From Escherichia coli (GTDB taxonomy: Bacteria; Pseudomonadota; Gammaproteobacteria; Enterobacterales; Enterobacteriaceae), in NCBI RefSeq assembly GCF_003019035.1, contig NZ_CP027447.1: a stretch of 64,000 nt of DNA, one strand, 5' to 3'. This document shows positions 18,194-43,585 of the stretch, one piece after another (position 1 is the first letter of the stretch; every line of letters starts with the position of its first letter). The notes beneath the pieces are model-generated. The model was not told where the DNA came from. It made no database searches and was given only the letters and a program-made list of their open reading frames with translations. The translations under genes were made by a program, and so were the position numbers.

Positions 18194-21084
<2,891 letters not shown>

Positions 21085-21170: not shown

Positions 21171-21422
21171 TCAGAGCTGGTTCACCCCATCAAGAACATC
21201 CCCCTTTATCAAGCAACGCTGCGTCAGCGCCAGATCTTCCGATTGCGGGTCGCGCCCGGCGATGGGTTTGAGGACGAGTTTACGGTTGGGGGTATAAGTA
21301 AAACGCGTGAGCGCGGGATAGCTTAACTTGCCAAACCAGCCGTGAACACGCTGCCATTTGGCGTCTTTTACCTGATACAGACTGGTTATCCAGTAACCGG
21401 AATCAAACTGCATATCCAGCAA
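21171..21422 (-). pseudogene. C-terminal fragment of a host ORF split by the prophage
   Basis: (L)LDMQFDSGYWITSLYQVKDAKWQRVHGWFGKLSYP...VNQL joins in frame with the N-terminal fragment at 57707..58204 across the shared LLD codons. Confidence 0.7.
21414..21422. repeat. left copy of the 9-bp direct repeat flanking the prophage
   Basis: ATCCAGCAA is identical to 57707..57715. The adjacent bases differ, so the repeat is exactly 9 bp. Confidence 0.8.
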
Positions 21423-21450
21423 TTGCGTGTGGCCATTCCTTGATCAGACA

Positions 21451-21483
21451 TGAGATAAATGAAGGGGGATCCGTGAGATAAAT
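21451..21483 (+). repeat. left-end repeats (candidate transposase binding sites)
   Basis: TGAGATAAAT occurs at 21451..21460 and 21474..21483. The 13-mer CCGTGAGATAAAT at 21471..21483 recurs inverted at the right end (57652..57664). Confidence 0.6.
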
Positions 21484-21636
21484 AACGAATTGGAGTGGGT
21501 TAACATGGGTTCTGGTGAACAGAACTGAAATTCTTTTTCGTTATACGATAGATAAGTCGGACATTGAAATCATCCTTTCTGGCAACTTAGAATCGAGTTT
21601 GCTGAAACATGACTCGTAACAAAAAGGATGATTCCA

Positions 21637-21798
21637 ATGACTACTCAAAACAATAAGCATGATAGCCTGGATTACTCAGAAAAGCCCAAAAGCAAGCACA
21701 TCGTGACGTTCGAGCGCGATTCCGGTAGAAAAGGAGAATCGTCTTCCTCTGCCAATAAAAACACTATACCGGCAGCTCCTGCTCCGGGGAAAAAATAA
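21637..21798 (+). CDS. possible 53-aa hydrophilic ORF at the left prophage end (weak call)
   Basis: I read MTTQNNKHDSLDYSEKPKSKHIVTFERDSGRKGESSSSANKNTIPAAPAPGKK, with AAGGA 8 nt upstream. It is below the ORF-track cutoff and has no recognisable motif. Confidence 0.25.
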   Translation: MTTQNNKHDSLDYSEKPKSKHIVTFERDSGRKGESSSSANKNTIPAAPAPGKK

Positions 21799-21801
21799 AC
21801 A

Positions 21802-22434
21802 TCATTCATCGTTCGTTGCACGAACGCGCCTGATCTCCACTCTGGCAATCTGATCTGCTGGAATATAGGTTGCCAGAGCTCCCCAGTACTTATCAACCAC
21901 GCCTTTATACTCTTCCCATTCGTTACTGCCTGAAGGGCTGCTGTGTGTGACGTAAAGAACCATATCGCCTTTATTCCCCAGGGTAAACGGACCGTTAGGC
22001 CACTCTTCAAAGTTCCCTGGCAGTCGTGACATCATACCGGAACCATCGCGAAGAATCACTCTGACCTCGGTGACGCTGAAGTCTGTTTGATCAAACATTG
22101 CCTGCCATGCTGAGCTGGTATCGTCAGACCATGAAATATCATTATTCCACAGTAATCTGTACATCCATTTGCGACCGTACCTGCGCCACCACGCACCACA
22201 TGTAACAGCACACAGAAGTGCTGGTGGTGTTGCCAGCCAGGCATTCAGACCTGCCCACATAACAGCCTGGTAAGCCATCATTGCTGTCAGGCCAAAAATT
22301 AGCGAAGAAAAAGTCACCTCAATGGGTTTGTGCTGATCCTTCAGCCCCACATTCGCAATAAAATACCCAATATAGCCACTGGTCAGAGTCACCAGTGTTG
22401 CCCATGGCAAATTTAACAACGAAACGTCAAACAT
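21802..22434 (-). CDS. orphan 210-aa protein with three N-terminal TM helices and a soluble C-terminal domain
   Basis: MFDVSLLNLPWATLVTLTSGYIGYFIANVGL... with SD AGGGAGA 5 nt upstream of the ATG at 22432..22434. It is the last gene before the left end and lies downstream of a terminator. Confidence 0.7.
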   Translation of the reverse strand: MFDVSLLNLPWATLVTLTSGYIGYFIANVGLKDQHKPIEVTFSSLIFGLTAMMAYQAVMWAGLNAWLATPPALLCAVTCGAWWRRYGRKWMYRLLWNNDISWSDDTSSAWQAMFDQTDFSVTEVRVILRDGSGMMSRLPGNFEEWPNGPFTLGNKGDMVLYVTHSSPSGSNEWEEYKGVVDKYWGALATYIPADQIARVEIRRVRATNDE

Positions 22435-22471
22435 ATTTTCTCCCTGCATCCTGAATACTACAGAGAGAGCA

Positions 22472-22502
22472 TAAAAAAAGCACGGTAAGGGGTCTACCGT
22501 GC
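22472..22502 (-). terminator. rho-independent terminator after the mor-like gene
   Basis: Minus strand reads GCACGGTA-GACCCCT-TACCGTGC followed by TTTTTTTAT. Confidence 0.7.
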
Positions 22503-22548
22503 TTTTATACAATAAGGAGATTTTTGAAAGGACTTTAACAAGCAGGAA

Positions 22549-22947
22549 TTATCTGGATTTGTTAACGTCTCTCGTCTCTTCTGGCAGATCTTCATCAAAC
22601 AACCTGCCCTGCATCCGATCCAGTTCTTCTTTTCTGACCCGCTTAACCACGCTGTAGACCCACTGAAGCGAAACACCAAACTTGCGGGCCAGTTCATGGT
22701 GGTTGCGTCCGTTAAACTCCCGGAAGATTTCCCGGTCGCGCTGACTGACCTTCCATACCATGCCCATCGGGAAATAAACGTTTTGCCCGCCCCAGACCTG
22801 CATCATGCGGTTCGCGACGGCCTGACCAATCTGGTCGGCAATTGCGGGCTCAATATCAATAATCTCGCGAACGGTCTCAGAGGTATGCTGTGCCAGTTCC
22901 ACCAGGAGTTCCGGCCCTTTACTTCGAAACTGATTCAGGTCGCTCAT
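22549..22947 (-). CDS. Mor/C-family transcriptional activator
   Basis: 132 aa. The segment GGQNVYFPMG...RDREIFREFNGRNHHELARKFGVSLQWVYSVVKRVR matches the recalled Mu Mor pattern (GGxxVYxP...FNGRN..EL...YGV....VY). Confidence 0.85.
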   Translation of the reverse strand: MSDLNQFRSKGPELLVELAQHTSETVREIIDIEPAIADQIGQAVANRMMQVWGGQNVYFPMGMVWKVSQRDREIFREFNGRNHHELARKFGVSLQWVYSVVKRVRKEELDRMQGRLFDEDLPEETRDVNKSR

Positions 22948-23371
22948 GTTTTACTCCCGCAGCTCTGCGCTGCCACTTCTTCAGTTTCTCAATAACACTG
23001 CTTGCCTGTTCTGTATTGAGCCAGCGCAGGGCGCTGATGCCCGTTTCCCGCTTGATCCACCGCGCTAATGCATTTTCTGAACGGTCACGAACAATGCCGG
23101 CAGCAGCCATTTCAAGCCATAGCGCACGGATTTTCCTGGACTGCGGATGGTTATCCAGCGGTAAACCGGAGCTGGCTTTTCCGGCAGGCTTAACGCGAAA
23201 GCCTTTCCTTTTCATGGATTCCAGCACGCAGTTTAGTTGTGTGGTATCCATTCCTTTGGTTGAGGCTTTACCGGTCAGCCCCTGTAACATCTGGCGGTAG
23301 GTGTCTTCATCCATACCCAGTTCATTACGGGCAATATGAATGAGCTGGATAAGACGTTGTTTAGTCATCAT
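22919..23371 (-). CDS. GemA / Mu gp16-like early protein (DUF1018-type)
   Basis: MMTKQRLIQLIHIARNELGMDEDTYRQMLQGLTGKASTKGMDTTQLNCVLESMKRKGF is the typical GemA N-terminal pattern. The start was trimmed to the ATG at 23371. Confidence 0.8.
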   Translation of the reverse strand: MMTKQRLIQLIHIARNELGMDEDTYRQMLQGLTGKASTKGMDTTQLNCVLESMKRKGFRVKPAGKASSGLPLDNHPQSRKIRALWLEMAAAGIVRDRSENALARWIKRETGISALRWLNTEQASSVIEKLKKWQRRAAGVKHERPESVSK

Positions 23372-23576
23372 CGTTGCTCCTTTTACCTGCGCCACCGATA
23401 TAATCGACATATAAAGGAAGCGCCACAGGCCAGCACAGGAACATCACCGACCAGCTAATCCAGTAGCCGGCACCACTGTAACGTGAATAAAACCCTGAAC
23501 GGCGGTGCAGTTCAGCAGTACACCAACCGACAAAACAATACCAGAACAGGGCACATACAACAGATTCAGCCGTCAT
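23361..23576 (-). CDS. small (71-aa) two-TM membrane protein
   Basis: MTAESVVCALFWYCFVGWCTAELHRR...WSVMFLCWPVALPLYV. It is coupled by overlap to both neighbouring genes. Confidence 0.5.
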   Translation of the reverse strand: MTAESVVCALFWYCFVGWCTAELHRRSGFYSRYSGAGYWISWSVMFLCWPVALPLYVDYIGGAGKRSNDDD

Positions 23577-23796
23577 TCTGAATATCCCCCCAACTGATAT
23601 GAATATTACGGGCAGCAATGACAGGGTCGTTATCCCACCATGCACCTGACATGTATTTTTCAACCTGTTCGCGTCCGGCAATAACACCAATTGTGATCCC
23701 CGGCCTGACGTTCTTAAAAAAGGCGCGGGCAAAAAGGTATCTGGCAGATATTCGGCAGGCTTTTAATTTCCGGCTGTTACCTGATAGCGTAATCAT
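23566..23796 (-). CDS. hypothetical early protein (76 aa)
   Basis: It has an ATGA start/stop overlap with the upstream gene. No motif was recognised. Confidence 0.5.
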   Translation of the reverse strand: MITLSGNSRKLKACRISARYLFARAFFKNVRPGITIGVIAGREQVEKYMSGAWWDNDPVIAARNIHISWGDIQNDG

Positions 23797-24476
23797 CTGG
23801 CCTCCAGTTTCTGTTGTTCCTGCCCACTGACCGGGCGGTGCAGTCTGACGTTCTGCCCTTCACGAAACCCCGCATAGCGCGAGGCGTCACCATTGCGGCT
23901 TCTTCCCGGTTTACGCGCCCTGGTGGTTTGCGTTTGCGGGTATTTATGTTCCAGCCACTGCTGCATCAGTTCACGTTCGTCATCAGTCAGGGCGAAGGAC
24001 TGTATTTCACTGATAACGGCCAGCACCCAGCCTTCAGCAAACTGGTCTCCACGGCTGGTGCGGGTGGCGGTTTTTATTCTTTTGTTCTGTGTGCTGATAT
24101 ACTGCTGACGCGCCTTTTTCAGCTGGCGGGCCAGCACTTCCCAAGTGTACGCAGCCAGTGCGGCCCGTTCCCGGTTGCCGTAGAATCCCACACCCGGATA
24201 TGTGCCGGGGTGAATGATGGAGTTAACACCAAATGCCTCGCGGATGATGTTCATCAGGCCCAACATATAGCGCGGTGGACGGAGGCTGCCTGTCGGCCAG
24301 TAGTGGCTGATGGTTTCATCAATATCACTCATGGCAATGTCGGAATGTGTGATGCCGTGAACATCCATCAGTTTACGGGCACGGCGCAGTGCCAGAGCGG
24401 CCTCGTGCGGGTTGCCGGATGCAGCCAGCGCCAGCAGTTTTTTCAGTTTCTCAATGTGTTTATCCAGGTCTGTCAT
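23793..24476 (-). CDS. DUF2786-like early protein (227 aa)
   Basis: The N-terminus IEKLKKLLALAASGNPHEAALALRRARKLM is the pattern I associate with DUF2786. Confidence 0.65.
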   Translation of the reverse strand: MTDLDKHIEKLKKLLALAASGNPHEAALALRRARKLMDVHGITHSDIAMSDIDETISHYWPTGSLRPPRYMLGLMNIIREAFGVNSIIHPGTYPGVGFYGNRERAALAAYTWEVLARQLKKARQQYISTQNKRIKTATRTSRGDQFAEGWVLAVISEIQSFALTDDERELMQQWLEHKYPQTQTTRARKPGRSRNGDASRYAGFREGQNVRLHRPVSGQEQQKLEAR

Positions 24477-24778
24477 TGTTCGGTATCTCCGGTGTACATG
24501 ACGCCCAGCCGTGCGGCAAGGCGTTCCAGTTTTTTCTGTTTGTGGAAGTCAATCAGCCGGCCCATCCCCTGAAGACGCAACTGCTCTGTCATGATTTCCA
24601 CGTCTGCCAGCTCTGCCGCGAGGTCACTTTCGCTGCCCTGTCCGTTCAGGTTGCGGGCAGCACTGGCCGCCAGTTCGGCGGCCTCTTCTGTCAGTTTCAG
24701 GGCCTGTGCATCCGGCCCGAAACGCTGCAGAGCCAGACGATAGAGGGCAGTGCGTGTGAGTATGGTGTTCCGTGTCAT
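24473..24778 (-). CDS. small MazG-like nucleotide pyrophosphohydrolase candidate (101 aa)
   Basis: LTEEAAELAAS...AAELADVEIM fits the EExxE...ExxD metal-binding pattern of all-alpha MazG-like proteins. The assignment rests on this motif only. Confidence 0.5.
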   Translation of the reverse strand: MTRNTILTRTALYRLALQRFGPDAQALKLTEEAAELAASAARNLNGQGSESDLAAELADVEIMTEQLRLQGMGRLIDFHKQKKLERLAARLGVMYTGDTEQ

Positions 24779-24787
24779 GCCGCGCCC

Positions 24788-25060
24788 TCAGTGCTTCCGG
24801 TCGACGGTGATGTGCAGGCCGCCTTCTGCAGTGGTTTCCATCCGGTACGGCACCTCATGCTCTGCCGTGTGGGTGAGTGTGTTCACCAGTACCTGCAGGG
24901 CAGCCTCCTTTCCGTTGGTCGTCACAATGGCCTGAGCGGCCATGCTGATTAGCGCTGTCAGGACGTGCTTCACATCGGTGAGGTCGCGGCATTCACACTC
25001 GTTGACATAGTGTTCAACAAGGGTTCGGGTGCGCTGTCGTGCTTCCTGTGGGGTAATCAT
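24788..25060 (-). CDS. hypothetical early protein (90 aa)
   Basis: It is translationally coupled (ATGA) to the upstream zinc-ribbon ORF. Confidence 0.5.
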   Translation of the reverse strand: MITPQEARQRTRTLVEHYVNECECRDLTDVKHVLTALISMAAQAIVTTNGKEAALQVLVNTLTHTAEHEVPYRMETTAEGGLHITVDRKH

Positions 25061-25251
25061 TGCGAGTCCTCCCTGTCAGGGCGGGAGAATTCCATGACGG
25101 GCACGTCCGCTGAAAAATGTTGGCTGCAGTACGGACAGACCAGGGTGACGCGCACTGCAGGTACGTGGTACTTACCGGACATCACGGCGATGGCGCTGTG
25201 AAAACGCAGGGCTGTTATATCCCTCTCGCACTGAATACATTTAAATATCAT
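25057..25251 (-). CDS. small zinc-ribbon protein (64 aa)
   Basis: Contains CIQC...CPYC, two CxxC pairs. Confidence 0.55.
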   Translation of the reverse strand: MIFKCIQCERDITALRFHSAIAVMSGKYHVPAVRVTLVCPYCSQHFSADVPVMEFSRPDREDSQ

Positions 25252-25348
25252 GATTTAATTCTCCTCTGTTTCCGGCGTGCAGAAGCCCACGGCGCTGACG
25301 CCGGAATAAAAAAGAAAATGTTTTTATTAAATAATTAACGTGGTGTGT

Positions 25349-25879
25349 TTACTGCACATCCTGCTCAAAAGGAATTATTGAAAAATCCTCAATATCACTT
25401 TTTATGGTAATACCGGGAATATTTTTCACGGCCTCTTTTTCATTCAGAATGGCATCTTTATTTATTTCCTCTTTTACACGAATAAAGCGCTCAAGCCCCA
25501 GACGTCTCAGTAGTTCAATAACATTATCCGCTCCACGGATACTGACTGATGGCGGACGGTTTCGCCACTGCACCTCGCCGGTGGTGAGGTTAGCGAACTT
25601 CACCTTCCCGTTGCCGGTCAGTTCATCACGGTGTGCCTCACACCATGTCTGAATACCGGACTGCAGTTCGGCCATGCGTTTTTTCAGGCTCTCGGTGAGC
25701 GGGGCATAACGTGCGGTGATATCGCCAATGGCGTCATTCATTTCTGTTTCAGCCCTGACCAGTTCACGTTGTGCGTCACCGAGCAGTCTGATTCCCTCAA
25801 TGACCTCTTCGCGTGTCCCCGGTACCCAGAGTGCCGCTGCGGACTTGATACGTTTTGCCCCTTTTGTACTTTTTGCCAT
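25349..25879 (-). CDS. gam: Mu Gam-like host-nuclease inhibitor (DNA-end binding)
   Basis: MAKSTKGAKRIKSAAALWVP...ETEMNDAI...WCEAHRDELT..GKVK.ANL.TG.V.WR.RPPSVSIRG...GLERFIR.K.EINK.AIL...ITIKSDIEDFSIIPFEQ is near-colinear with recalled Mu Gam. Confidence 0.9.
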   Translation of the reverse strand: MAKSTKGAKRIKSAAALWVPGTREEVIEGIRLLGDAQRELVRAETEMNDAIGDITARYAPLTESLKKRMAELQSGIQTWCEAHRDELTGNGKVKFANLTTGEVQWRNRPPSVSIRGADNVIELLRRLGLERFIRVKEEINKDAILNEKEAVKNIPGITIKSDIEDFSIIPFEQDVQ

Positions 25880-25906
25880 ATCTTATGATTTCTCCGGTTG
25901 TGCTGA

Positions 25907-26176
25907 TTACCACAAAGATTCCGGCCACACGACGCGACAGCCGTGCAGTTCGAAAACGCCCTGACGGAAATATCCCCTGTGGTCATGTCCGGTATACAGA
26001 TAACAGGCCTTTCCCTGCTCAAGCATGCGCATGCAATGCGCACTTCGGGAAACGCGGATGACAGGTTTGTTACCCCTGATGGTGATGCTTTGTACATCCG
26101 TGTTCGTCGCCTTAAGCGCCATAATGGCTGACTGCACTTTGCTGATTTGCTGGTTGATACCTGTGGTGGATTTCAT
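25907..26176 (-). CDS. hypothetical early protein (89 aa)
   Basis: The ORF lies between the MuB-like gene and gam. No motif was recognised. Confidence 0.5.
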   Translation of the reverse strand: MKSTTGINQQISKVQSAIMALKATNTDVQSITIRGNKPVIRVSRSAHCMRMLEQGKACYLYTGHDHRGYFRQGVFELHGCRVVWPESLW

Positions 26177-26178
26177 TA

Positions 26179-27345
26179 TTAAACCCCTTTGACAACGTCA
26201 GCGTTGACCTGTGGAACCCCGATTTCAGCGGCCAGATTCATGGCGGCTATCACCAGGTTACTGACGGCCAGCGGATACAACAGGCTGACCATATTTTTAC
26301 GATGACTTCCCGGATTGCTCAGGCGGGCACGTATGGCATCCACTGCACTGGCGTCCATAATGTCCGTCAGTTGTTTACCTGCCCGTTGCAGTTTGAACGT
26401 CAGAAACTCTTCAAGGTTATTGTCCAGAGGCAGAAGTTCGACCACCTCACAGCGCTGAACGACTTCACGGACTTCCATATTGCGTTCAGACAGTTTTGTC
26501 GCCAGTTCCGGCTGGCCAATCAGCACGATGGACAGCAGTTTTTTGAAACCGGACTCCAGCTCAAAAAAGCGTTTGAGGTGTTTCAGTGTCGGAATGGGCA
26601 GACTGTGGGCCTCCTCAATCACCAGAACGTGGCTGAACCCCGCCTGGCTGCTGTCTTTCAGGACGCGATGCAACTGGCGAAAGCGGGCGTCCTGACTGCG
26701 TCTGATGCTTTCCAGTGGTGCGATGGTACTGATAATGGCTTCGGCAATAGCTGCTGCCTTCAGGGTTTTCCCTTTCACATCGTTGTCTTCCATAGCGATG
26801 ATGTATGGCTCGATAACAATTACCGGCGCATTCTCGCGGTTGATACGTTCAGTCAGGTCGCGGCGCAGCGTGGATTTACCCGCACCGGACTCACCGATGA
26901 CGGCCATAAACCCACCATGACGGGCTGTCTGGTACAACGCCTCACGCACGTAGCGAATGTCCGGGGTGGTGAACACATCATCAGAACCCTGCATGGCTTC
27001 GTCGGCGAACGGGTCACGGAAAAGACCAAACGCTTTTTTGGTTGCTGGAAATAACACCTGTTTTTTGAGTAACATATTCTCTTCCTCACTGAGGCTCGTT
27101 TTATCTGTGGTACCCGCTGTACGGGGCGTGGCCGCGCCCTGTACAGCATCAAAACTCTTCGCTGTATCAATCCCCTGACTTTCCAGCCAGGACGCAAGAC
27201 GCCGGCGCACTTCTCCGGGGCTGGTGCGGGGCCACGCGTTATGATTCACAATCTGGGCCAGCGTGGCCTCAGAAACATCGACAGCTCTCGCCACCACCGC
27301 CTGTGGAATACGGGCCTCTTTCAGTTGCTGCTTCAGTACCAGCAT
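26179..27345 (-). CDS. MuB-like AAA+ transposition ATPase / target DNA activator
   Basis: It has an N-terminal HTH-like segment and Walker A GESGAGKSTL. The start was set at MLVLKQQL (SD GGAGGG), directly after the transposase gene. Confidence 0.85.
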   Translation of the reverse strand: MLVLKQQLKEARIPQAVVARAVDVSEATLAQIVNHNAWPRTSPGEVRRRLASWLESQGIDTAKSFDAVQGAATPRTAGTTDKTSLSEEENMLLKKQVLFPATKKAFGLFRDPFADEAMQGSDDVFTTPDIRYVREALYQTARHGGFMAVIGESGAGKSTLRRDLTERINRENAPVIVIEPYIIAMEDNDVKGKTLKAAAIAEAIISTIAPLESIRRSQDARFRQLHRVLKDSSQAGFSHVLVIEEAHSLPIPTLKHLKRFFELESGFKKLLSIVLIGQPELATKLSERNMEVREVVQRCEVVELLPLDNNLEEFLTFKLQRAGKQLTDIMDASAVDAIRARLSNPGSHRKNMVSLLYPLAVSNLVIAAMNLAAEIGVPQVNADVVKGV

Positions 27346-27355
27346 GTTTCCCTCC

Positions 27356-29125
27356 TCAGTTGCCGTTAACAATGCTGATAACGCTGCTGCGGGCCGGCGT
27401 GGTCAGCGTGGCCATGACTTCATCCAGTGCGGCTTCCGGTACGCCGTCCGGGTACTGTGCCGTTAACTGGCGGTAATGTTCCGGCGTCCAGGTAAGGCCG
27501 TCGGCGCTGAACTTATCGCGCAGGGCTTTCGCGGCCTCCACATGAGTCATGGGACGTTGTTCAGTGCGCGGTCTGCGTACATCAGAGGCCTGACCGCGCT
27601 TCGGTATACAGGCCGGAAGTGTGGCGTCATCAATATGTTTATACGGGTCAAGCCGCCCGCCGAACGGCAGCGCCTTCGCCTTGCGTGCGGCAGCTGCATC
27701 TGCGGCGTTGTCTGTACCGGTGACCAGCGCTTCGGTTTCTTTTGCCGCCGTCTGTGCCGGTGTTTCCGGCAGGGCTTTGTAACTTTCGCCAAATACCGCC
27801 GCGCCTTCAGCAAAGCCAAACTCGTTCTTTCTGACCTCTTCGACCAGGAAGAACGTCTCGTGGCCGTCCTCACCGGTCAGAACCACCTGTGCCACATCGC
27901 TGCGCCATGGGTTACGGGTAATCATCAGTTTTTCACCAACCAGTACGCCCGGTACCGTTGATACGTCAAATTCAGTGCCCCGGAACGAGACACGAAGTTT
28001 TGGCGTGACTTTGCGGAGTTCTGGTGTCGTCACAGCCAGTTCACGGCATACCTCAACGGAAGGCGCTTTTTTCAGCTGCTCAGCAGTAATCTTCAGCCAG
28101 ATATCCGTGCGGGTTTTACCGTGGCGGCTGTGAACAGCTGTTGCGTTAAAGTGGCTACGCCATTTCGCGGCCAGCGCGTTGAGTTCTTCCAGACTGTGAA
28201 CCGGCCGGAACTTCAGACCCGGCTCCAGCTTGCGTTCGATAATGTCACGCGCCTTTTCCACCTGTCCGGTGGCGCGGGCGTTATGCGGCTTGTGCGCTAT
28301 CAGGTCGATGCCCAGTGAGCGGCACATGTTTTTCGTCATACCCGCGGTGTTTGCCGAGCCGGGGTCGAGATAGAGTATTTTCGGCACGCCGTGCAGCACG
28401 TCTGCGCCGCCACGCTCCTGCATGGCGTTGATAAGCACAGAACACAGGTTCTCACCGGATTCCGCACCCGTCACATACTCAACGTAAATCCAGCCGCTGG
28501 CATGGTCGGTAATCTCGTAACTCCACACGCGGTCACTGGCGATACGGGCAAGGTTAGCGGGCTTGTTCTTGTAGAACTTCGCGCTGTCCATCACCTGCAG
28601 CCCTTTGTGTCCATTGCTCAGGTAGTAAAGCGTGCAGAGAGAGGCATCAATCTGCCAGACATGATTGGGATGCAGACTGGCCACTTCGGTATGCGGCGCA
28701 GGGGCATCCAGTTGTTCCGGGTGCAGGCCATAGTTACGCAGGGCACGGCTGATAGCATCTTCGGACAACGGGAAAAACTCACCGGTGGTTTCATCTGTTC
28801 TGCCTGCGGAGATAAAGCCGTTAGCCCGCAGGGTTTCCACTGCATCTGCGATGGAATAGAGACGCTTACCGTTCTTGCGGGTGGCCTCACGTAGTGTGGC
28901 AGATATCAGCGCGGCTTCGTCGCGGGTCAGGGCGCTGCGCCCGGCATCGGCGCGTTTTTTGCGTTTATCAGTCACAGAGACCTCCTTCAGCCTGCGCAGC
29001 AGAGTGGCGCGGGACATGCCAAGTTCAGCACAGGCGGCGTCATATATTGCACCACGTTTACCATGCCCCGCGTCACGTGCCGCGCGGGCGACATAAACCA
29101 GTCGTTCAGTCAGGGCAGCATTCAT
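27356..29125 (-). CDS. Mu-type DDE transposase (589 aa)
   Basis: It has an N-terminal HTH and an rve-like core (HPNHVWQIDASLCTLYY..., LDPGSANTAG). Its position upstream of the MuB-like gene fits. Confidence 0.9.
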   Translation of the reverse strand: MNAALTERLVYVARAARDAGHGKRGAIYDAACAELGMSRATLLRRLKEVSVTDKRKKRADAGRSALTRDEAALISATLREATRKNGKRLYSIADAVETLRANGFISAGRTDETTGEFFPLSEDAISRALRNYGLHPEQLDAPAPHTEVASLHPNHVWQIDASLCTLYYLSNGHKGLQVMDSAKFYKNKPANLARIASDRVWSYEITDHASGWIYVEYVTGAESGENLCSVLINAMQERGGADVLHGVPKILYLDPGSANTAGMTKNMCRSLGIDLIAHKPHNARATGQVEKARDIIERKLEPGLKFRPVHSLEELNALAAKWRSHFNATAVHSRHGKTRTDIWLKITAEQLKKAPSVEVCRELAVTTPELRKVTPKLRVSFRGTEFDVSTVPGVLVGEKLMITRNPWRSDVAQVVLTGEDGHETFFLVEEVRKNEFGFAEGAAVFGESYKALPETPAQTAAKETEALVTGTDNAADAAAARKAKALPFGGRLDPYKHIDDATLPACIPKRGQASDVRRPRTEQRPMTHVEAAKALRDKFSADGLTWTPEHYRQLTAQYPDGVPEAALDEVMATLTTPARSSVISIVNGN

Positions 29126-29128
29126 TGG

Positions 29129-30043
29129 TTATGCCTCCAGCCCGTTAATCTGTGGCGTCGGCTCAGTCAGCCATGAAGGCGCGACATCGCCTGTTGGCTC
29201 GTCCGGCAGGTCAAATGTGGAGCGCAGGCTACGCGCTGTGCTTTCCAGTTGACAGACCAGGCCTGCCATGAAGTCTCTGGGGGTATCAATCATGTTTTCA
29301 GCACAATATGCGCACAGCGTCTCAAAAGCGCTGGACAGTCGAACGGCGATAGCAGATTCCGCCTCAACCGCTAATGCTGTCACTTCCGCCCGCAGCTTCT
29401 TAACCTCTTCATCAGGCTCAGGCGGCTGAATACGGGATTTCTTCTCCAGTTTTGTGGAAAGCGAGTCGATTTTTTCGTTTTTGTCGGCCAGCACGCGCTG
29501 TTGTGCTGCGTTGGTTTCGCGGGCTTCGCGCAGGGCCTGACGCAATTCACGTACTGACATGCGATCAACGTCGTCAAGCGTCAGGCCGGCAACTGTGCCG
29601 CCGTCGGCCAATTCATCAAGTTCTTCATTATCCAGAACCATCAGGTCGTACAGTTTGGCTTTCCCCAAAACGCTCAACGTTGAGCGTTTTGTTGGCTCAT
29701 CACCTTCTCCCAAAAACTTCATACTGGCTTGCATCATGCGGCGAGCAACTTGTGGTGCAAGTCCGAGTTCATTTTCTAAAATGTTTGTAAAATCACCGTG
29801 TGGCTCATTTTCTTTTAAGATGATCAGCCGTTTACCCGCTTCCAGCATAGATTCAGCACTCTGCGCCATATAAAAACGTGCTTCGTGAACAATGCGATCA
29901 CGTTCATAAGGCAGTCCATCACCAAACTGCTGCATAATTTCCATGCGATGCTGTGTCATAGCGTTCAAATTGACATTGATGTTATCTGACAGCGGAACCT
30001 CAACATTCAGTTCAGTGTTAACGGGTGATTTGGTGCGTCCCAT
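29129..30043 (-). CDS. DUF3102-like coiled-coil early protein (304 aa)
   Basis: It is a conserved partner upstream of the transposase in Mu-like elements (from memory). It has a central coiled coil. Function unknown. Confidence 0.6.
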   Translation of the reverse strand: MGRTKSPVNTELNVEVPLSDNINVNLNAMTQHRMEIMQQFGDGLPYERDRIVHEARFYMAQSAESMLEAGKRLIILKENEPHGDFTNILENELGLAPQVARRMMQASMKFLGEGDEPTKRSTLSVLGKAKLYDLMVLDNEELDELADGGTVAGLTLDDVDRMSVRELRQALREARETNAAQQRVLADKNEKIDSLSTKLEKKSRIQPPEPDEEVKKLRAEVTALAVEAESAIAVRLSSAFETLCAYCAENMIDTPRDFMAGLVCQLESTARSLRSTFDLPDEPTGDVAPSWLTEPTPQINGLEA

Positions 30044-30053
30044 TGATTACTCC

Positions 30054-30362
30054 TTACAAACGACTACCTGAAATAACTCGTTGGTTGATTTCGTTAATAC
30101 GATCCTGTGCACGCGCCATCTCGTGACTGTGAGCCATGGCGATCTGTAGTAACTGGATTCCCGGTGCGAAACGTCCGTTCTCTAATTTCATGGCCAGTCC
30201 CTCTTCAATAAGGGTATTAAGTGCTCGATTGATATTCGCCGGGGACTCCCCCAGGGCTGATGCCAGTTCACCGTTAGAAACACCGTTCAGAGCATGACCG
30301 CGTAGAGCTTTGAGTACACGTAGGATGCGGCTCCCGGAACTGGAAATATTTACTTTACTCAT
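30054..30362 (-). CDS. winged-helix (IclR-N/MarR-like) DNA-binding protein
   Basis: SRILRVLKALRGHALNGVSNGELASALGESPANINRALNTLIEEGL. An alternative start at 30425 would overlap the end of the ner-like gene. Confidence 0.6.
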   Translation of the reverse strand: MSKVNISSSGSRILRVLKALRGHALNGVSNGELASALGESPANINRALNTLIEEGLAMKLENGRFAPGIQLLQIAMAHSHEMARAQDRINEINQRVISGSRL

Positions 30363-30382
30363 GTCACATTTCCATTTTTGCA

Positions 30383-30693
30383 ATATGTGATAACCTGTTG
30401 CATATGTGGAAAATTTATGCCGCATTTGACGTGGGTTTTAATCCCAGTTTTACGGCAATTTCATGGGCTTTGCCGTAACGAGCTTTGGTCTGTCCATTGA
30501 GAACACGATAGACCTCATTGCGGCTGTAGCCGTGTTCTTCGGCCCAGCGGGTAAACGTGATACCACGCTGACGGAAGAGATTTTTAACTTGTTCGGAAGT
30601 CATTGTTGTCTCCTTTGTTGATGCAATGATGTTTGTTTTATATGTGATAGATTATGTGAACTATTGTTCTCATTGTCAATGAGGTTTATGTGA
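30383..30693. promoter_or_regulatory. five copies of WTATGTGR (candidate repressor/Ner operators)
   Basis: ATATGTGA at 30383 and 30640, ATATGTGG at 30402, TTATGTGA at 30652 and 30686. All five read the same way on the + strand, and the last overlaps the repressor GTG start. Confidence 0.5.
30415..30603 (-). CDS. Ner/Cro-like small HTH regulator, first gene of the early operon
   Basis: 62 aa (ITFTRWAEEHGYSRNEVYRVLNGQTKARYGKAHEIAVKLGLK), divergent from the repressor gene. Confidence 0.7.
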   Translation of the reverse strand: MTSEQVKNLFRQRGITFTRWAEEHGYSRNEVYRVLNGQTKARYGKAHEIAVKLGLKPTSNAA

Positions 30694-31115
30694 ATTTTGA
30701 TTCTCTTTGCGCGTCGCGGTTCAAAGCTGAGCGTTCGCGGTTATCACTCAAGCAGGCTGAAGTAGCAGCCCTTTGTGGCGTTTCAAGAGAAATGTGGGGG
30801 AAATATGAACGAGGGGTTGCTGTTCCCGGAGGTGAGTTACTTGCAGCCTTTGCAAGAATTGGGGCCAATGTACAGTTCATTCTTACCGGGGAGTCATCAG
30901 GTATAACTTTATCACGTGATGAAATGGAGTTACTGCAGCACTACCGGCAAGCACCGTTACAGGTCAAAGGTTCAGTTTTGTCGGCTTTGACTACTGGCTC
31001 CTCCAGAGAACGGGCGGAACAGGTTATTCATGGAGATGTTCTGGGGAATGTTATCAAAGGTAACGTAACCATAGGAACAGGTGGAATAATGAACAAAAAT
31101 ACCAAGAGAAGATGA
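30690..31115 (+). CDS. XRE-family HTH protein, probable prophage repressor (c analogue)
   Basis: GTG start with GAGG upstream. HTH LSLKQAEVAALCGVSREMWGKYERG. Divergent from the early operon. The C-terminal tail is VIHGDVLGNVIKGNVTIGTGG. Confidence 0.75.
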   Translation: MNFDSLCASRFKAERSRLSLKQAEVAALCGVSREMWGKYERGVAVPGGELLAAFARIGANVQFILTGESSGITLSRDEMELLQHYRQAPLQVKGSVLSALTTGSSRERAEQVIHGDVLGNVIKGNVTIGTGGIMNKNTKRR

Positions 31116-32098
31116 GTAAAGAGAAGCAAACAGTTAACGGGGATGTGGGTAACGTTGTCAGCGGTGATGTTACCATTCATAACTATTCTGCTGACATACT
31201 TCCTTCTGCCCAGCAACCAATTTCGTTGCTGCAAAAACGCGATTTACACAGATTGATGGATGAATTGGTTGATCTGGGGGAAAGTAAGCGCGAGCTATGG
31301 ATGACGATCCACACGAAACTTAATACCAAAACAGTTAATGAAATGACTGCGGCTGATTATCATGGTGCGGTTGAGATCCTTCAGAGATATGCACAACAGA
31401 TCCAGAATATGAAGGACTGTAATCTTCTGGTCAGCAAAATAATGGCGCTTACTGACCCTGGGTATCGTCTTGACCGTGACAGATACTGTCTGAAGCATTT
31501 CGGTACAACCCATCTTAAAGGCCTGGACAAAGAGCAGTTGCAGGCTGTGTTTGGTTATTTTGATGATCTGCTGAATATTCGTGATGAGAGTAAAACTCTA
31601 TCACCTCCATCGGAAAGCGGTGCAAAATCAGTCGCAACTGTACCAACCAGAAGCCGGAAGCCTCATGTAGTAGTGTTGGGGGGAGCGTTAGTTCTTGTAG
31701 CAATATTTTTCGTGGGAATGATTGTGTTCGCTGGTAAATGGGGAAATGCTAAAGCAGTAGCTTCTACTGAAACCAGCGTTTTTAACATTAAAACCAACGA
31801 CAAAATAATAGAAGATTCCATCCCCGCACTGCGCAGCATGTTTCCAGGATTAAATAAGTACTCAGATGATTTCCATTCGGTTTCAAGCTACAAGCAAAAA
31901 ACGGGCTGGCATACCCTTAAATTTACTGTATCAGCAAAGGCATCCGTCCCCGAAAATTATAGTGTTAAGGGCAAGGTTTGTTACATTAACATAAACCCTG
32001 ATGGTAGTTATGCTCGGGTTTTGACTGCTCCATGTCGTTCACTGCTACTTGATCAGCAAAGCACTCCTGACAGTAAGTACCGTTTTATTCTTAAATAG
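31112..32098 (+). CDS. orphan 328-aa single-pass membrane protein coupled to the repressor gene
   Basis: ATGA overlap with the repressor stop. The N-terminus is VNGDVGNVVSGDVTIHNY, the TM segment is HVVVLGGALVLVAIFFVGMIVFAG, and about 110 aa follow it. The coding DNA is AT-rich. Confidence 0.7.
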   Translation: MSKEKQTVNGDVGNVVSGDVTIHNYSADILPSAQQPISLLQKRDLHRLMDELVDLGESKRELWMTIHTKLNTKTVNEMTAADYHGAVEILQRYAQQIQNMKDCNLLVSKIMALTDPGYRLDRDRYCLKHFGTTHLKGLDKEQLQAVFGYFDDLLNIRDESKTLSPPSESGAKSVATVPTRSRKPHVVVLGGALVLVAIFFVGMIVFAGKWGNAKAVASTETSVFNIKTNDKIIEDSIPALRSMFPGLNKYSDDFHSVSSYKQKTGWHTLKFTVSAKASVPENYSVKGKVCYININPDGSYARVLTAPCRSLLLDQQSTPDSKYRFILK

Positions 32099-32182
32099 AA
32101 AATAACAGCTGAATTACCATGGGAGCAGAAAAAAGACAAAGGCGATATCATGCTGCGTTCTAAAATTTTAATGTAAAAGGTG

Positions 32183-32290
32183 ATGAACATGGCAGGGATT
32201 CAGGTTATCGCAGGAAGTTTTCCTAAAGGGTGGGCAAGCATGGGGTTCGGTACCATCGTGTTTGCCACCAATCCATGGAACGATGGGTAA
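32183..32290 (+). CDS. possible 35-aa peptide ORF (weak call)
   Basis: MNMAGIQVIAGSFPKGWASMGFGTIVFATNPWNDG, with AAGG close upstream. It lies inside the region between the 328-aa gene and the terminator. Confidence 0.2.
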   Translation: MNMAGIQVIAGSFPKGWASMGFGTIVFATNPWNDG

Positions 32291-32338
32291 TGTCTGCATT
32301 TTCATAATCTGTAAGCCTTTTACAATTATTAAAAATAT

Positions 32339-32448
32339 GGCAGGCTAGTCTGGTCTCGCGAGACTGACTGAACCTCGGTCGGCTCACAGTGCATTCCTGT
32401 GGGACGATGGCCAGCCCGGCTTTCGGGTGCCGGGCTGGTCGTTCTTTC
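32339..32448 (+). ncRNA. candidate structured RNA / 3' UTR element ending in a terminator
   Basis: It contains the 12-nt palindrome GTCTCGCGAGAC, the hairpin CACAG-TGCATTC-CTGTG and a long terminal stem. No ORF on the + strand spans this stretch. The 5' end is a guess. Confidence 0.3.
32411..32448 (+). terminator. rho-independent terminator closing the repressor-side transcription unit
   Basis: CCAGCCCGG-CTTTCGGGTG-CCGGGCTGG followed by TCGTTCTTTC. The stem can be extended by GACGA/TCGTT. Confidence 0.6.
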
Positions 32449-32494
32449 ATGATGCGGCAGGGATAGTGGGATTTCTGTTAATGTGGTTTAGGGA

Positions 32495-32710
32495 TTATCC
32501 GGGGTGATTGTCTGCCTTTATCTGGTCCAGGGCATAAGTGATCCCTTCAGCAAAAACAGAAGTATCGAACTGCTTTTGTATTTCCTGAAAATGAACAGTG
32601 GCACGACAGATACTCAGTTCTCCGCGATGTAACCGGATAATATCTTCCAGAACATTGTTCACTGCTTCGGCACGGCGCTGATGTTCTGTTAACGTTAATC
32701 GGGGATTCAT
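32495..32710 (-). CDS. orphan 71-aa protein
   Basis: Strong SD (TAAGGAG, 6-nt spacer). Its ATG shares 2 nt with the ATG of the divergent 134-aa ORF. Confidence 0.55.
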   Translation of the reverse strand: MNPRLTLTEHQRRAEAVNNVLEDIIRLHRGELSICRATVHFQEIQKQFDTSVFAEGITYALDQIKADNHPG

Positions 32711-33113
32711 GATGCACTCCTTAAATGATGATTTTTATGTACTCACCGGCAAAATATTCTGCCGATTACTGAACACGCATCCGGCACCTCAGGTTTTGAT
32801 TTATTCTGGTTTTTTCGATATCCCGGACCAGGTTGATCACGACCAGAAAAAGTGCCGGTATTTTATTGATACGCTGATATGGCTTCGGGATAACAGCTAT
32901 ATTCGTTACTCTCAGTTGCTGGCTGTGGGAGCGGCTGATGTCGTCCTCACGGAAAAAACGCTCTGTCTGCTCAATGCCATGCCGACCTTTCTGCAGCCCC
33001 GGCCCGTACCATTTAAAGAGTTGCTTCTGGATGCAGTAAAAACCGGCGAAAATGCAGTCATCGCTGAATGCGTATCCCGGATTATGCGTTACGTGTTTAA
33101 TGAACGTAAGTGA
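32709..33113 (+). CDS. orphan 134-aa protein, possibly winged-helix-like
   Basis: Coding-like codon pattern with GGGGA upstream. The segment IDTLIWLRDNSYIRYSQ...VVLTEKTLCLLN loosely resembles a wHTH recognition helix and wing. That reading is an inference. Confidence 0.55.
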   Translation: MMHSLNDDFYVLTGKIFCRLLNTHPAPQVLIYSGFFDIPDQVDHDQKKCRYFIDTLIWLRDNSYIRYSQLLAVGAADVVLTEKTLCLLNAMPTFLQPRPVPFKELLLDAVKTGENAVIAECVSRIMRYVFNERK

Positions 33114-33832
33114 GGTTTATCTGCTGTCTGCATAATCCCGATAGCCAGTGCGAGGGGAAGTAATTCCGGGGAAACTCTTTCAAACAGCGATGCCCATTCT
33201 CCTCTCGCCATCACTCTGTCCAGCCCGCCCCCCAGCTGCATTTCAGCAATCTTCCTGATTTCCCGGAACAACGCCGCTTTGATCTCTTCATGCTCAGCTT
33301 TATTTTCCGGTGTCAGAATGTATTCGTCGAAGAACCGGGGAGGCTGGTTAACGGGGATTGTGTTTACCGGGATGTGTTCCTGTTTCCCGTACTTCGGGGA
33401 CGAACAACATTCTGTTGGCTGACCGGTGAGTTTACGTAACTCCTTCATGAGCAGCTCCTGATCGTAAACTGTCATCAGTGCCGCAATGGTGGCATGCAGT
33501 GCATCGGGCAGTATCCAGGGTTGCCGGCCCGTGGGGCATATAACATCCAGTAGCTCATTCGTCCGACAGATACGCTCCTCTCCGTATGACAACAGGCCCT
33601 GTCCCGTGTATTCCTCCAGCCTGATCACTGTGCCAGCCCGTGGCTTCTGCCAGGTCGTCAGATCATCGCCACTCATACGGCGCTCATTCTCCACGTCAGC
33701 AGCATCGACAATGACGCTGTTTCCGAGTTCCTGTTTCACCACTTCCTCTATCCGCGCCAGTACGTAACTTTTACCGCTGCCCACAGGACCGGACACGGTG
33801 ACAGTGATGACCGGATTCAGTGTATGTGTCAT
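33089..33832 (-). CDS. orphan 247-aa P-loop protein
   Basis: Walker A VSGPVGSGKSYVL at residues 13-25 and a possible Walker B SVIVDAAD. SD GAGGAG. Divergent from the lysis genes, and its 3' end overlaps the 134-aa ORF by 25 nt. Confidence 0.7.
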   Translation of the reverse strand: MTHTLNPVITVTVSGPVGSGKSYVLARIEEVVKQELGNSVIVDAADVENERRMSGDDLTTWQKPRAGTVIRLEEYTGQGLLSYGEERICRTNELLDVICPTGRQPWILPDALHATIAALMTVYDQELLMKELRKLTGQPTECCSSPKYGKQEHIPVNTIPVNQPPRFFDEYILTPENKAEHEEIKAALFREIRKIAEMQLGGGLDRVMARGEWASLFERVSPELLPLALAIGIMQTADKPHLRSLNT

Positions 33833-33904
33833 GTTGCATTCTCCTCTGTGAATAATTCATCGTTTATCCTGCACATCCCGTATCCCCGGCTCTCTTAACG
33901 CGCT

Positions 33905-33943
33905 TTAAAATCCTTCGCGCCCTGTATTTGTGATGCTGTCTCC
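33905..33943 (+). promoter_or_regulatory. late-promoter-like bipartite motif, copy 1 (upstream of the lysis genes)
   Basis: TTAAAATC at 33905 and CTGTCTCC at 33936, with 31-nt start-to-start spacing. TAAAAT is -10-like, no -35 is evident, and a C-tract lies upstream. Confidence 0.4.
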
Positions 33944-33962
33944 ACCAGACAAGGAGACACAC

Positions 33963-34313
33963 ATGAAAAACCTGAAAAAATTCATTCCCCCTGTTAAAAA
34001 ACCTCGCCTCAGCGGCTGGCTGCTGACCTCAGTGCTGTTGCTGGGCACCATCGCTCTGGTCTCGCCACAGCAGCTGCCTGTTGTGATCTACAAGCTGGCA
34101 CTCATCACGCTGGCAGCAGTGCTGGGTTACTGGCTTGACCGTTCACTCTTCCCCAAAGCCCGTCCCGGTCAGTACCTGAAACATGAAGACAGGCTGATGG
34201 CTGAAGGGCGTTTCCCTGTGCAGACCGGCCTTCACCTTGTATTTTCTGCTGCGTTAATCCGCCGTGCACTGATTGTTGCAGCGGTCTGTCTGGCTGTGGC
34301 AACAGGACTGTGA
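33963..34313 (+). CDS. putative holin (116 aa, 3 TM)
   Basis: SD AAGGAG. MKNLKKF... has three hydrophobic segments. It is the first gene of the lysis cassette, so the call is by position and topology. Confidence 0.6.
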   Translation: MKNLKKFIPPVKKPRLSGWLLTSVLLLGTIALVSPQQLPVVIYKLALITLAAVLGYWLDRSLFPKARPGQYLKHEDRLMAEGRFPVQTGLHLVFSAALIRRALIVAAVCLAVATGL

Positions 34314-34315
34314 CC

Positions 34316-35038
34316 ATGAACTGGCCTCAAATCACCCTCATTATTCTGTTCGCCTTTGGTCTGGGCGTAACCGCCATCAGACACGGAGAACCACGTAACG
34401 ATAAATACAGCTTCTGGTGGCAGCTTGCTGGCAACCTGGTGATTGTCTGGCTGCTCTGGTGTGGCGGCTTCTTCAGTCAGGCCCGCGCAGCGCAGCCTCC
34501 GCAGGCTGCGCTGCAGTATCGCGATGATGTGATCCGTAATGCCCGGCTTGAATGGGGACTGTCTGCGCCGGTGGCCGATTTCGCTGCGCAACTGCATCAG
34601 GAAAGCGGCTGGCGACCTGATGCGGTCTCGCCGGCTGGCGCTCAGGGACTGGCGCAGTTCATGCCCGCCACTGCTGACTGGATAAGTCAGCTGATGCCGG
34701 GGCTTAACAGCCGTGAGCCGTTTAATCCGGCATGGGCCATCCGGGCGCTGGTCAGCTATGACCGCTGGCTGTGGCAGCGCGTCAGCGCCGCCAGTGACTG
34801 CGAACGTATGGCCATGACACTGTCGGGCTATAACGGTGGTCTGGGCTGGGTACAACGGGACAGGCAGCTAGCATCACAGAAAGGCCTGGACAGTACCCGC
34901 TGGTTCGGGCATGTCGCCACGGTGAATGCCGGACGCAATGCTGCCAGCTGGCGGGAGAACCGCCATTATCCGCAGCGCATCCTGCACGAACTGGCCCCCC
35001 GTTATCTGACATGGGGGGGCGGCAGCTGTGTGGACTAA
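34316..35038 (+). CDS. membrane-anchored lytic transglycosylase (endolysin, SLT domain)
   Basis: SLT motif LHQESGWRPDAVSPAGAQGLAQFMP, preceded by two hydrophobic helices. Confidence 0.8.
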   Translation: MNWPQITLIILFAFGLGVTAIRHGEPRNDKYSFWWQLAGNLVIVWLLWCGGFFSQARAAQPPQAALQYRDDVIRNARLEWGLSAPVADFAAQLHQESGWRPDAVSPAGAQGLAQFMPATADWISQLMPGLNSREPFNPAWAIRALVSYDRWLWQRVSAASDCERMAMTLSGYNGGLGWVQRDRQLASQKGLDSTRWFGHVATVNAGRNAASWRENRHYPQRILHELAPRYLTWGGGSCVD

Positions 35039-35681
35039 CCTGCTAAAAAATCTGCCGTGGCGCAGTCTGCTGCTGGCTGTGCTCATAAATGCTTTTCTGA
35101 TTGGACTTTATTACCTGGGCTACAAAAGCGGGCATGAAAACGCCACGCGCGACGGCGATAAGGCGATCAGTGAGTTGCAGTCAGCATTCGACACATACAA
35201 AACGGAGCAGGCAATGCTTGAGAACGCTGCGTTGCGAGCATGGGCAAAACGGTATCAGGAGCAGGTGGCCGCCGGGCAGCGGGCTGAAGCCGGTTATCTT
35301 GAGCAGATTGCTCAACTGGAGAGCCGGAACAAACAACTACAGGGGCAAATTAACGATGTCACACAGCGCTGGATTGATGAAAAAGGTAAGAGCCATCCCA
35401 TTGAGTGCGTGTTTACTCGCGGTTTCGTGCGCCAGTACAACGCCGCACTCGGGTATGACAACGCATCCGTCGACACCGGTCATTCAGACGCAACTGCCGC
35501 CGCTGGCACCGGCACTGGCGCAGCGACCGGGCAACCTGAAACCGCTGACGCCCGGTTACGCAATTCGGGTGTCTCCCAGCGTGACGTCCTCGCCAACATC
35601 ATCGACAACGCAGGGCAATGTCGTCGCTGGCGAAACCAGATAAACGCGCTGCTGGATGAACGGGAAGGATTACAGAAATGA
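35028..35681 (+). CDS. Rz-like i-spanin
   Basis: N-terminal TM (LLLAVLINAFLIGLYYLGY) followed by a long coiled coil. GTG start overlapping the end of the endolysin gene. Confidence 0.7.
   Translation: MWTNLLKNLPWRSLLLAVLINAFLIGLYYLGYKSGHENATRDGDKAISELQSAFDTYKTEQAMLENAALRAWAKRYQEQVAAGQRAEAGYLEQIAQLESRNKQLQGQINDVTQRWIDEKGKSHPIECVFTRGFVRQYNAALGYDNASVDTGHSDATAAAGTGTGAATGQPETADARLRNSGVSQRDVLANIIDNAGQCRRWRNQINALLDEREGLQK
35377..35643 (+). CDS. Rz1-like o-spanin embedded in the +1 frame of the Rz-like gene
   Basis: MKKVRAIPLSACLLAVSCASTTPH... has a lipobox-like AVSC and then a Pro/Thr-rich 88-aa product. It lies wholly inside 35028..35681. Confidence 0.65.
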   Translation: MKKVRAIPLSACLLAVSCASTTPHSGMTTHPSTPVIQTQLPPLAPALAQRPGNLKPLTPGYAIRVSPSVTSSPTSSTTQGNVVAGETR

Positions 35682-36315: not shown

Positions 36316-36317
36316 TT

Positions 36318-40477: not shown

Positions 40478-40479
40478 CA

Positions 40480-40938: not shown

Positions 40939-40980
40939 GTTTTCTCTCTTCAGGCGGGTGATTTATCATTGCCAGCGAAT

Positions 40981-41026
40981 GAGGGGCTGTATTACCTTTA
41001 TAAAGGCTTTACAGCCTCTGTTTTAT
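40981..41026 (+). terminator. hairpin plus T-run ending the first late unit
   Basis: GAGGGGCTGTA...TACAGCCTC with an inner palindrome CCTTTATAAAGG, followed by TGTTTTAT. Confidence 0.55.
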
Positions 41027-41089
41027 AACCGCTTCCGGTTCACCGCATTGCTTTCCCTGTCCTTCTCCCCTGATGTTTTCTAAAGCAGA

Positions 41090-41128: not shown

Positions 41129-41152
41129 GACAACATAACGCGGGACAGCAAA

Positions 41153-43584: not shown

Positions 43585-43585
43585 C

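Follow-up and report, generated by a model that had tools for sequence, protein, structure and literature searches.

Phage morons such as HK97 gp15, lambda rexAB, and lom/bor are optional genes that lie between core genes and a genome end, are lower in GC content, and are bounded by terminators. The locus described here shared these features. It carries two genes at the extreme left end of an Escherichia coli prophage: gene 1, which codes for a 210-aa predicted inner-membrane protein, and gene 2, which codes for a 53-aa hydrophilic protein. A variable end position, a terminator, and an inner-membrane product are typical of known exclusion morons such as HK97 gp15, and gene 1 resembled that pattern. 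Lambda RexAB consists of a membrane component and a cytoplasmic partner and offers a comparison for the pair. The locus differed from these morons in that no promoter was detected for its main gene and in that its genes converged instead of forming an operon; furthermore, the products of characterized morons had no sequence or fold relation to the gene 1 protein.

Two groups of proteins are relevant to the architecture of the gene 1 product. The first is the Sm/LSm/Hfq proteins, whose barrel fold its soluble domain shared. The gene 1 protein differed from this group in that it matched neither the LSM nor the Hfq family of Pfam, its barrel was fused to three membrane helices, and a ~25-residue insertion separated two of the strands. 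The second is the MscS channels, which have an outside N terminus, three transmembrane (TM) helices, and then an Sm-like beta domain in the cytoplasm. The gene 1 protein likewise had three TM helices and then a putatively cytoplasmic Sm-like domain, with a predicted N-out/C-in topology, but it lacked the C-terminal alpha-beta domain of MscS.

Toxin-antitoxin systems of types I and II are comparable as mobile two-gene units whose small gene counters a gene for a potentially membrane-active product, and for type I the possibility of overlapping convergent transcription was a further likeness. However, the candidate toxin was a 210-aa protein with a folded domain, as opposed to a short hydrophobic peptide, and the opposing gene coded for a conserved protein (dN/dS of 0.05) and not for RNA alone, with no match in Rfam. 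The size of the candidate toxin and the protein-coding nature of the opposing gene excluded type I membership. Unlike type II systems, the two genes did not form a co-directional operon, and there was no DNA-binding antitoxin domain.

The closest described protein family was DUF6338 (PF19865), which is of a similar length class (~205 aa). Weak matches to this family (22.5 to 28.5 bits) were found for 14 of 27 gene 1 relatives, and only one relative (P0052) passed the curated gathering cut-off of 26.5 bits; the window protein itself had no Pfam match at an E value of ≤1. The matches spanned profile positions 54 to 143 of 205 and were collinear; they began in TM2/TM3, crossed the basic anchor, and reached the first barrel strands. 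Because only these 14 relatives matched and nearly all fell below the cut-off, we regarded the gene 1 family as a sister group of DUF6338 and not as a clear member. Both DUF6338 and PHROG 12870, the phage protein cluster to which gene 1 belongs, are uncharacterized, and the gene 1 family is already catalogued. A single paper that mentions DUF6338 was found. In P. stutzeri, Pro-rich microproteins that were detected by mass spectrometry share a predicted operon with a DUF6338 gene, and DUF6338 has been noted in biosynthetic gene clusters (PMC10433244). The P. stutzeri data provided an independent hint that an association of this kind is real and expressed.

The carrier prophage and the optional segment at its left end

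The window that we analyzed was a stretch of E. coli DNA of 64,000 nucleotides. The features that concern the locus are listed below by coordinates, strand, and content.

18194..21084, E. coli chromosome to the left of the prophage, with ascF/ascB-like genes
21441..21530, no strand, left (mor-proximal) prophage end, with a TG start and two direct TGAGATAAAT repeats (21451 and 21474)
21562..21581 and 21620..21639, no strand, inverted repeat with 20-nt arms that are 90% complementary and 38 nt apart
21564..21593, + strand, σ70 promoter-like site TTGAAA-18-TAGAAT upstream of gene 2, score of 10/12
21637..21798, + strand, gene 2, whose 53-aa product is hydrophilic and has a Pro-rich C terminus (...IPAAPAPGKK); PGAP CDS WP_023892643.1; PHROG 15726
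21802..22434, - strand, gene 1, coding for a 210-aa predicted inner-membrane protein, ATG at 22434; PHROG 12870, AF2 model, and dN/dS
22440..22445, - strand, Shine-Dalgarno sequence (SD) GGGAGA of gene 1, 5 nt before the ATG, read from the sequence
22476..22506, - strand, intrinsic terminator after mor, with a 13-pair stem and T7
22549..22947, - strand, mor, the late-transcription activator gene, with which the core genes of the early operon end; Pfam Mor, E value of 1e-43

The carrier was a transposable prophage of 36.2 kb that occupied positions 21441..57694. The TGAGATAAAT repeats at the left end are probably transposase-binding sites, and the same decamer was also found in inverted orientation near the other end (57652..57661). 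A 6-nt direct repeat, ATTCCT, was present on both flanks, beside 21441 and beside 57694. In other E. coli genomes that contained near-identical prophage copies, homology began at positions 21433 to 21441, and the adjoining host genes were unrelated (rhaS, sfaA, mdfA, kefF, yodD, and others). Gene 1 was indeed the last gene ahead of the left prophage end at 21441, as the preliminary description of this DNA had claimed.

The prophage transposase was 68% identical to BcepMu gp09 and 97.6% identical to that of Escherichia phage PhiKM (Bcepmuvirus). As in BcepMu, the early operon (A, B/ExeA, Gam, DUF2786, GemA, and Mor) was located on the - strand and pointed to the left end, and Pfam matches supported GemA (E value of 1e-40) and Mor (E value of 1e-43). 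A DDE transposase, an ExeA-type B protein, a gemA-mor end, TG...CA ends, a short target duplication, and many insertion sites were all found; the carrier is a BcepMu-like transposable prophage.

Several other observations were made on the carrier. The prophage apparently split a host open reading frame (ORF): the 170-aa N-terminal part at 57692..58204 (- strand), which has a signal-peptide-like start, ran into the right end and owed its stop codon to the terminal 3 nt of the prophage, and an 83-aa ORF just beyond the left end (21171..21440, - strand) was its same-strand continuation. At the right end, an ORF for a Gin/Hin-type serine invertase (within 56849..57616, + strand) adjoined opposed tail-fiber C-terminal cassettes (54877..55845 on the + strand versus 55852..56972 on the - strand), and together these elements (54877..57616) look like a host-range switch similar to the Mu G segment. 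The top σ70 match in the prophage was located upstream of the early operon (30651..30679, - strand; TTGACA-17-CATAAT, 11/12) and was faced by divergent promoter-like sites at 31782..32014; the early promoter and the repressor switch probably lie in this region. Finally, the only genome that was 100% identical across the two-gene segment, that of E. coli IAL7250 (locus L001), had an intact segment in a prophage copy that was defective, because the transposase gene (L001 17917..19689) was annotated as a truncated pseudogene and ~10 kb of the central region was seemingly gone.

This prophage end was compared with those of its relatives. A mor/gemA end was present in 639 of 5,426 complete E. coli genomes. 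The segment 21441..22470 was covered to at least 80% in 117 complete E. coli genomes, and gene 1 was detectable at any identity in 131 (~2.4%), which included ST131 strains and strain 83972. The majority prophage variant stopped ~140 bp past mor (L003 and L004). For PhiKM, Klebsiella phage KP12, and Phi06_2974B, the match started only at window position ~22590 and the segment was absent; in BcepMu, whose own gene 1 is mor, it was likewise missing, and BcepMu, PhiKM, and KP12 all terminated immediately past mor. The cargo-less ends and BcepMu had only about the first 80 nt in common with the cargo-bearing end.

On the mor side, the homology breakpoints fell at positions 22589 to 22593, in the last ~14 codons of mor. 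Since the break lies inside the 3' end of mor (22549..22592), the last ~14 Mor residues differ between cargo-plus and cargo-less prophages, in which the protein is 132 aa and 129 aa long, respectively. The GC content was 43 to 50% in the segment versus 50 to 61% in the early operon. The same position was occupied in some close relatives and empty in others. The proposal that terminator-bounded cargo sits at the extreme prophage end was borne out by its absence from most close relatives and from the type phage BcepMu, and the possibility that gene 1 belongs to the early operon and is shared by all related phages was examined and did not hold, since most of these phages lacked the gene. We conclude with high confidence that the locus is a two-gene cassette that is optional, mobile among prophages, and located in the interval from the mor terminator to the phage end.

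The two genes traveled together. Among the enterobacterial loci, which comprised E. coli variants (75 to 99% identity), Citrobacter braakii, two Serratia prophages, Salmonella diarizonae, and Salmonella Reading, a convergent ORF of 46 to 53 aa was found downstream of every gene 1 homolog for which enough sequence was available. Distant homologs, which were 31 to 49% identical and came from Bradyrhizobium, Afipia, and several prophage contigs of alphaproteobacteria, had an equivalent ORF of 42 to 57 aa. The gap between the gene 1 stop and the small ORF was 0 to 40 nt at nearly every locus with enough downstream DNA; one locus (L045) had no comparable small ORF. The pair was placed after mor in all of the diverged enterobacterial Mu-like prophages (Citrobacter, Serratia, and Salmonella). 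In other prophage types, it was located amid head genes (L057 and L053, where portal, protease, capsid, and connector genes preceded it and a head-tail adaptor gene followed) or between tail genes (L055), and it was also found in Bradyrhizobium and Afipia chromosomes. A Synechococcus phage carried a 30%-identical gene 1 homolog at the end of its record. Without exception, gene 1 was oriented like the phage operon upstream of it, and the small gene was oriented against it. The occurrence of the pair in several prophage types and sites argues for a moron-like insert and not a core gene specific to one type of phage.

Two observations outside of prophages were also made. An unannotated orphan copy (~145 nt, ~89% identity) of the cargo-type end (21450..21594), which contains the gene 2 promoter-like site, was present at ~105 E. 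coli plasmid sites; the sampled ones were mostly APEC ColV-type. In the one plasmid that was examined (p1ColV5155; L060 2501..2644), this copy lay amid IS3/IS1 debris with no adjacent cassette genes. An Allosphingosinicella metagenome-assembled genome (L019 7954..10371) contained a distant gene 1 homolog outside of any recognizable prophage, next to a gene for a 236-aa protein with no Pfam match and a DUF4411 and Peptidase_M78 (ImmA/IrrE-type) pair; no convincing Pro-rich convergent ORF was found at this locus.

The two genes and the DNA around them

The gene 1 ORF had been proposed to code for a 210-aa protein with a good SD, three N-terminal TM helices, and an RRYGRKW stretch, and each of these features was recovered. 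The ORF runs from the ATG at 22434 to 21802, GGGAGA is present, and the NCBI pipeline (PGAP) called exactly this ORF in a 100%-identical genome as WP_023892644.1, with the product name "hypothetical protein." In the AF2 model (pLDDT of 82), helices spanned residues 11 to 27, 37 to 60, and 65 to 97. They were moderately hydrophobic (KD hydropathy of 1.2 to 1.5) and rich in Gly, Ser, and Thr. RRYGRKW, the basic anchor, occupied residues 84 to 90. Five K/R residues were located directly past helix 3 and none at the N terminus, and by the positive-inside rule an N-out/C-in topology is therefore predicted.

The preliminary description had been unable to assign the C-terminal domain of ~110 aa; it proved assignable at the level of the fold. 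Structure comparison of the AF2 model indicated that residues ~105 to 205 form an Sm/LSm-like barrel, in which an N-terminal helix and a strongly bent, five-stranded antiparallel sheet were superposable on Sm proteins. In the model, then, the soluble part of the protein is an Sm-fold barrel, which the predicted topology would place in the cytoplasm. No sequence relative of the gene 1 protein was found among solved structures, and it matched no known defense, toxin-antitoxin, holin, or MscS family. It also had no match in NCBIfam, and neither cassette protein matched any component HMM in PADLOC-DB v2 at an E value of ≤1.

The one strong match was to PHROG 12870 (function uncharacterized), which was end to end (residues 1 to 210 on profile positions 1 to 210; E value of 2.2e-132). 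A profile search yielded 522 cluster representatives, nearly all listed as ~200 to 215 aa long and matching over their whole length, and dN/dS values for gene 1 were 0.1 to 0.16; both results place the ORF far beyond chance. Invariant residues in the family include P10, W11, G20, Y21, H35, S101, D104, G148, G153, D157, Y161, T163, and R202, of which H35 would sit in a cytoplasmic loop in the predicted topology.

Gene 2 had been listed as a possible 53-aa ORF with 3 nt between its stop codon and that of gene 1. The ORF and the spacing stood, but "possible" understated the case. PGAP called the gene in the 100%-identical genome (WP_023892643.1, "hypothetical protein"), and the protein matched PHROG 15726 with an E value of 7e-40. 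When two Salmonella copies were compared, dN/dS was ~0.05 and 12 of the 15 differences were at codon position 3, a pattern that argues for a protein-coding gene under purifying selection. With its conserved partner counted in, the unit is therefore a cassette of two genes.

Among 19 copies, the small proteins had GRAVY values of -1.2 to -1.8 and shared an aromatic-S/T-x-x-P-K/R motif near the N terminus; a PxxP sequence was found within the last 14 residues in 15 copies, and K/R within the last 4 residues in 17. The protein is disordered, with a Pro-rich and basic C terminus (PxxP...K/R), although the family diverges fast and the PxxP tail was missing in 4 of the 19 copies.

Next to mor, the reported clean rho-independent terminator was confirmed as a 13-pair stem and T-run at 22506..22476. 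It was the strongest terminator-like site within 21.4 to 37 kb, and a hairpin and T-run between mor and gene 1 were kept in all eight enterobacterial relatives examined; the stem sequence was different in one (L006), and other loci were altered near the loop. On the + strand, the mor-side hairpin had a folding energy of -16.7 kcal/mol and was followed by TTTTAT, and the terminator is potentially bidirectional by way of the A-run on its other side. A scan for σ70 promoters in the 41-nt interval from the terminator to the gene 1 ATG found none, and across the enterobacterial loci nothing in this interval was kept besides the T-run and the SD. The characterization of gene 1 as an insulated moron was upheld as to the optional cargo past the mor terminator; it also implies independent expression in lysogens, and in this respect gene 1 showed a conserved upstream terminator but no detected promoter. 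A Mor-dependent gene 1 promoter on the hairpin dyad was also considered and dropped, because no copy of the dyad was present at any late-operon start; exact occurrences of AGCACGGTA were the hairpin and one intragenic site at 37136.

The only conserved promoter-like site at the cassette was TTGAAA-18-TAGAAT, which reads through gene 2 toward gene 1. Its hexamers and 18-nt spacing were kept in eight of eight enterobacterial loci (with TTGAAC in L010), whose phage proteins were just 50 to 77% identical. The idea that this site is part of the transposase-binding end was ruled out, as the cargo-less ends share only the first ~80 nt and lack the site; it thus belongs to the cassette and not to the phage end. 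The arms of the inverted repeat link the -35 box with the SD/ATG of gene 2 and were recognizable in other enterobacterial loci. This repeat could be an operator pair or could fold into a hairpin within the 3' portion of the gene 1 transcript. Rfam returned noise alone for the locus (E value of ~0.6), and no known RNA element was found.

No terminator was present between the two genes, and the 3-nt gap is too short for one, so each transcript must extend into the other gene. Judging from the sequence, the mor-side hairpin could then end the gene 2 transcript after its antisense passage across gene 1.

A proposed mechanism and its alternatives

Our leading reading, which is tentative and to which we would give a little less than an even chance, is that the locus is an optional, self-contained cassette in which a membrane effector is opposed by a small gene. 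The gene 1 protein would oligomerize by way of its Sm-like domain, in the manner of Sm proteins and the MscS beta domain, and the oligomer would be an effector that targets the inner membrane and causes exclusion, abortive infection, or toxicity. Exclusion or abortive infection had also been suggested in the preliminary description. Gene 2 would counteract gene 1 by means of its transcript, which would run antisense across gene 1, and its Pro-rich tail (PxxP...K/R) could also dock on the small barrel of the gene 1 protein. Gene 1 itself would be transcribed chiefly by read-through from the early operon. Oligomerization, the effector role, and antagonism by gene 2 are put forward with low to moderate confidence, and the antisense interference is suggested solely by the gene spacing. 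The lack of similarity to known defense and toxin-antitoxin proteins, the fast divergence of the small protein, the copies that have no PxxP tail, and the L045 locus count against this reading.

A broader form of this proposal is that the cassette represents a widely distributed, two-component phage-borne system, in which an Sm-domain ring in the membrane is gated or silenced by a Pro-rich microprotein, and which would form a class of its own among abortive-infection, exclusion, or toxin-antidote systems. Such a system would be controlled by tightly convergent, overlapping transcription and perhaps also by docking of the PxxP tail on the barrel. We consider this form rather doubtful. Our literature search found no link between Sm-like membrane proteins and anti-phage roles, and no account was found of the Sm fold, of the mobility of the cassette, or of a convergent Pro-rich microprotein as the constant partner of gene 1.

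The position of gene 1 behind a terminator at a variable end, its predicted inner-membrane product, and its insertion in several prophage types would also suit a single-gene moron that is expressed in the lysogen, with a membrane protein that blocks DNA entry by superinfecting phages and a small ORF that is incidental. No gene 1 promoter was detected, however, and PADLOC contained no match. Moreover, the small ORF was kept with gene 1 across phyla under purifying selection and is therefore not incidental. A single-gene exclusion moron of this kind struck us as an unlikely explanation.

Since no promoter of its own was found, gene 1 may be silent in lysogens, and such silence would fit a lytic-cycle role better than lysogenic conversion. 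Gene 1 would then come on solely upon induction, when transcription reads through the mor terminator, and would act in phage development, for example in membrane alteration, lysis timing, or the exclusion of competitors during replication, and the small gene would silence it in the lysogen. Gene 1 was co-oriented with the upstream phage operon everywhere, with the small gene opposed; what precedes gene 1 is a terminator and not a promoter; and the sole conserved promoter-like site is that of the small gene. Yet most sister phages, including ones deposited as isolates, lack gene 1, and the prophage already has a lysis cassette, which the PhiKM annotation places elsewhere, so that gene 1 lies outside it. 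Resemblance to holins was weak and confined to the TM region (BFVD Foldseek matches with E values of 0.04 to 0.9 and TM-scores of 0.2 to 0.5), and a holin was rejected. As a whole, a developmental helper of this type seemed improbable to us. On the narrower matter of timing, given that no gene 1 promoter was found and that the conserved promoter-like site opposes gene 1, we lean toward read-through after induction over expression in the lysogen.

Two other readings were less likely. The consistent pairing of gene 1 with Pro-rich small proteins, and the report of DUF6338 in biosynthetic gene clusters and of Pro-rich microproteins beside a DUF6338 gene (PMC10433244), raised the idea that the microprotein is an active peptide of a signaling or antimicrobial type that the DUF6338-like membrane protein exports, processes, or confers immunity to. 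We think this quite unlikely: neither a signal peptide nor a leader or Cys pattern was seen in the small protein, export is an unlikely task for a protein of three helices that lacks ATPase and peptidase motifs, and a convergent layout is unusual among precursor-transporter pairs. A phage-borne miniature MscS-type mechanosensitive or ion channel is very improbable, since beyond the gross layout noted above the hhalign probability for MscS membership was 0.1% and no MscS chain was among the top structural hits.

The effector-and-antagonist reading is the one that we favor, and we view the finding as a solid, moderately interesting lead and not as a demonstrated new system. New functions that act against phages or modify the host come in large part from prophage cargo genes, and the wider gene 1 family, with more than 500 sequence clusters over Proteobacteria and their phages, is uncharacterized. 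The fixed pairing with an opposing Pro-rich microprotein and the Sm fold turn a bare "hypothetical membrane protein" into one that is testable. Even if no phenotype emerges, the locus is a well-delimited accessory cassette, which is helpful for annotation. If the proposal is true, phage-borne systems would gain a new design, namely, a membrane-tethered Sm domain that a microprotein controls.
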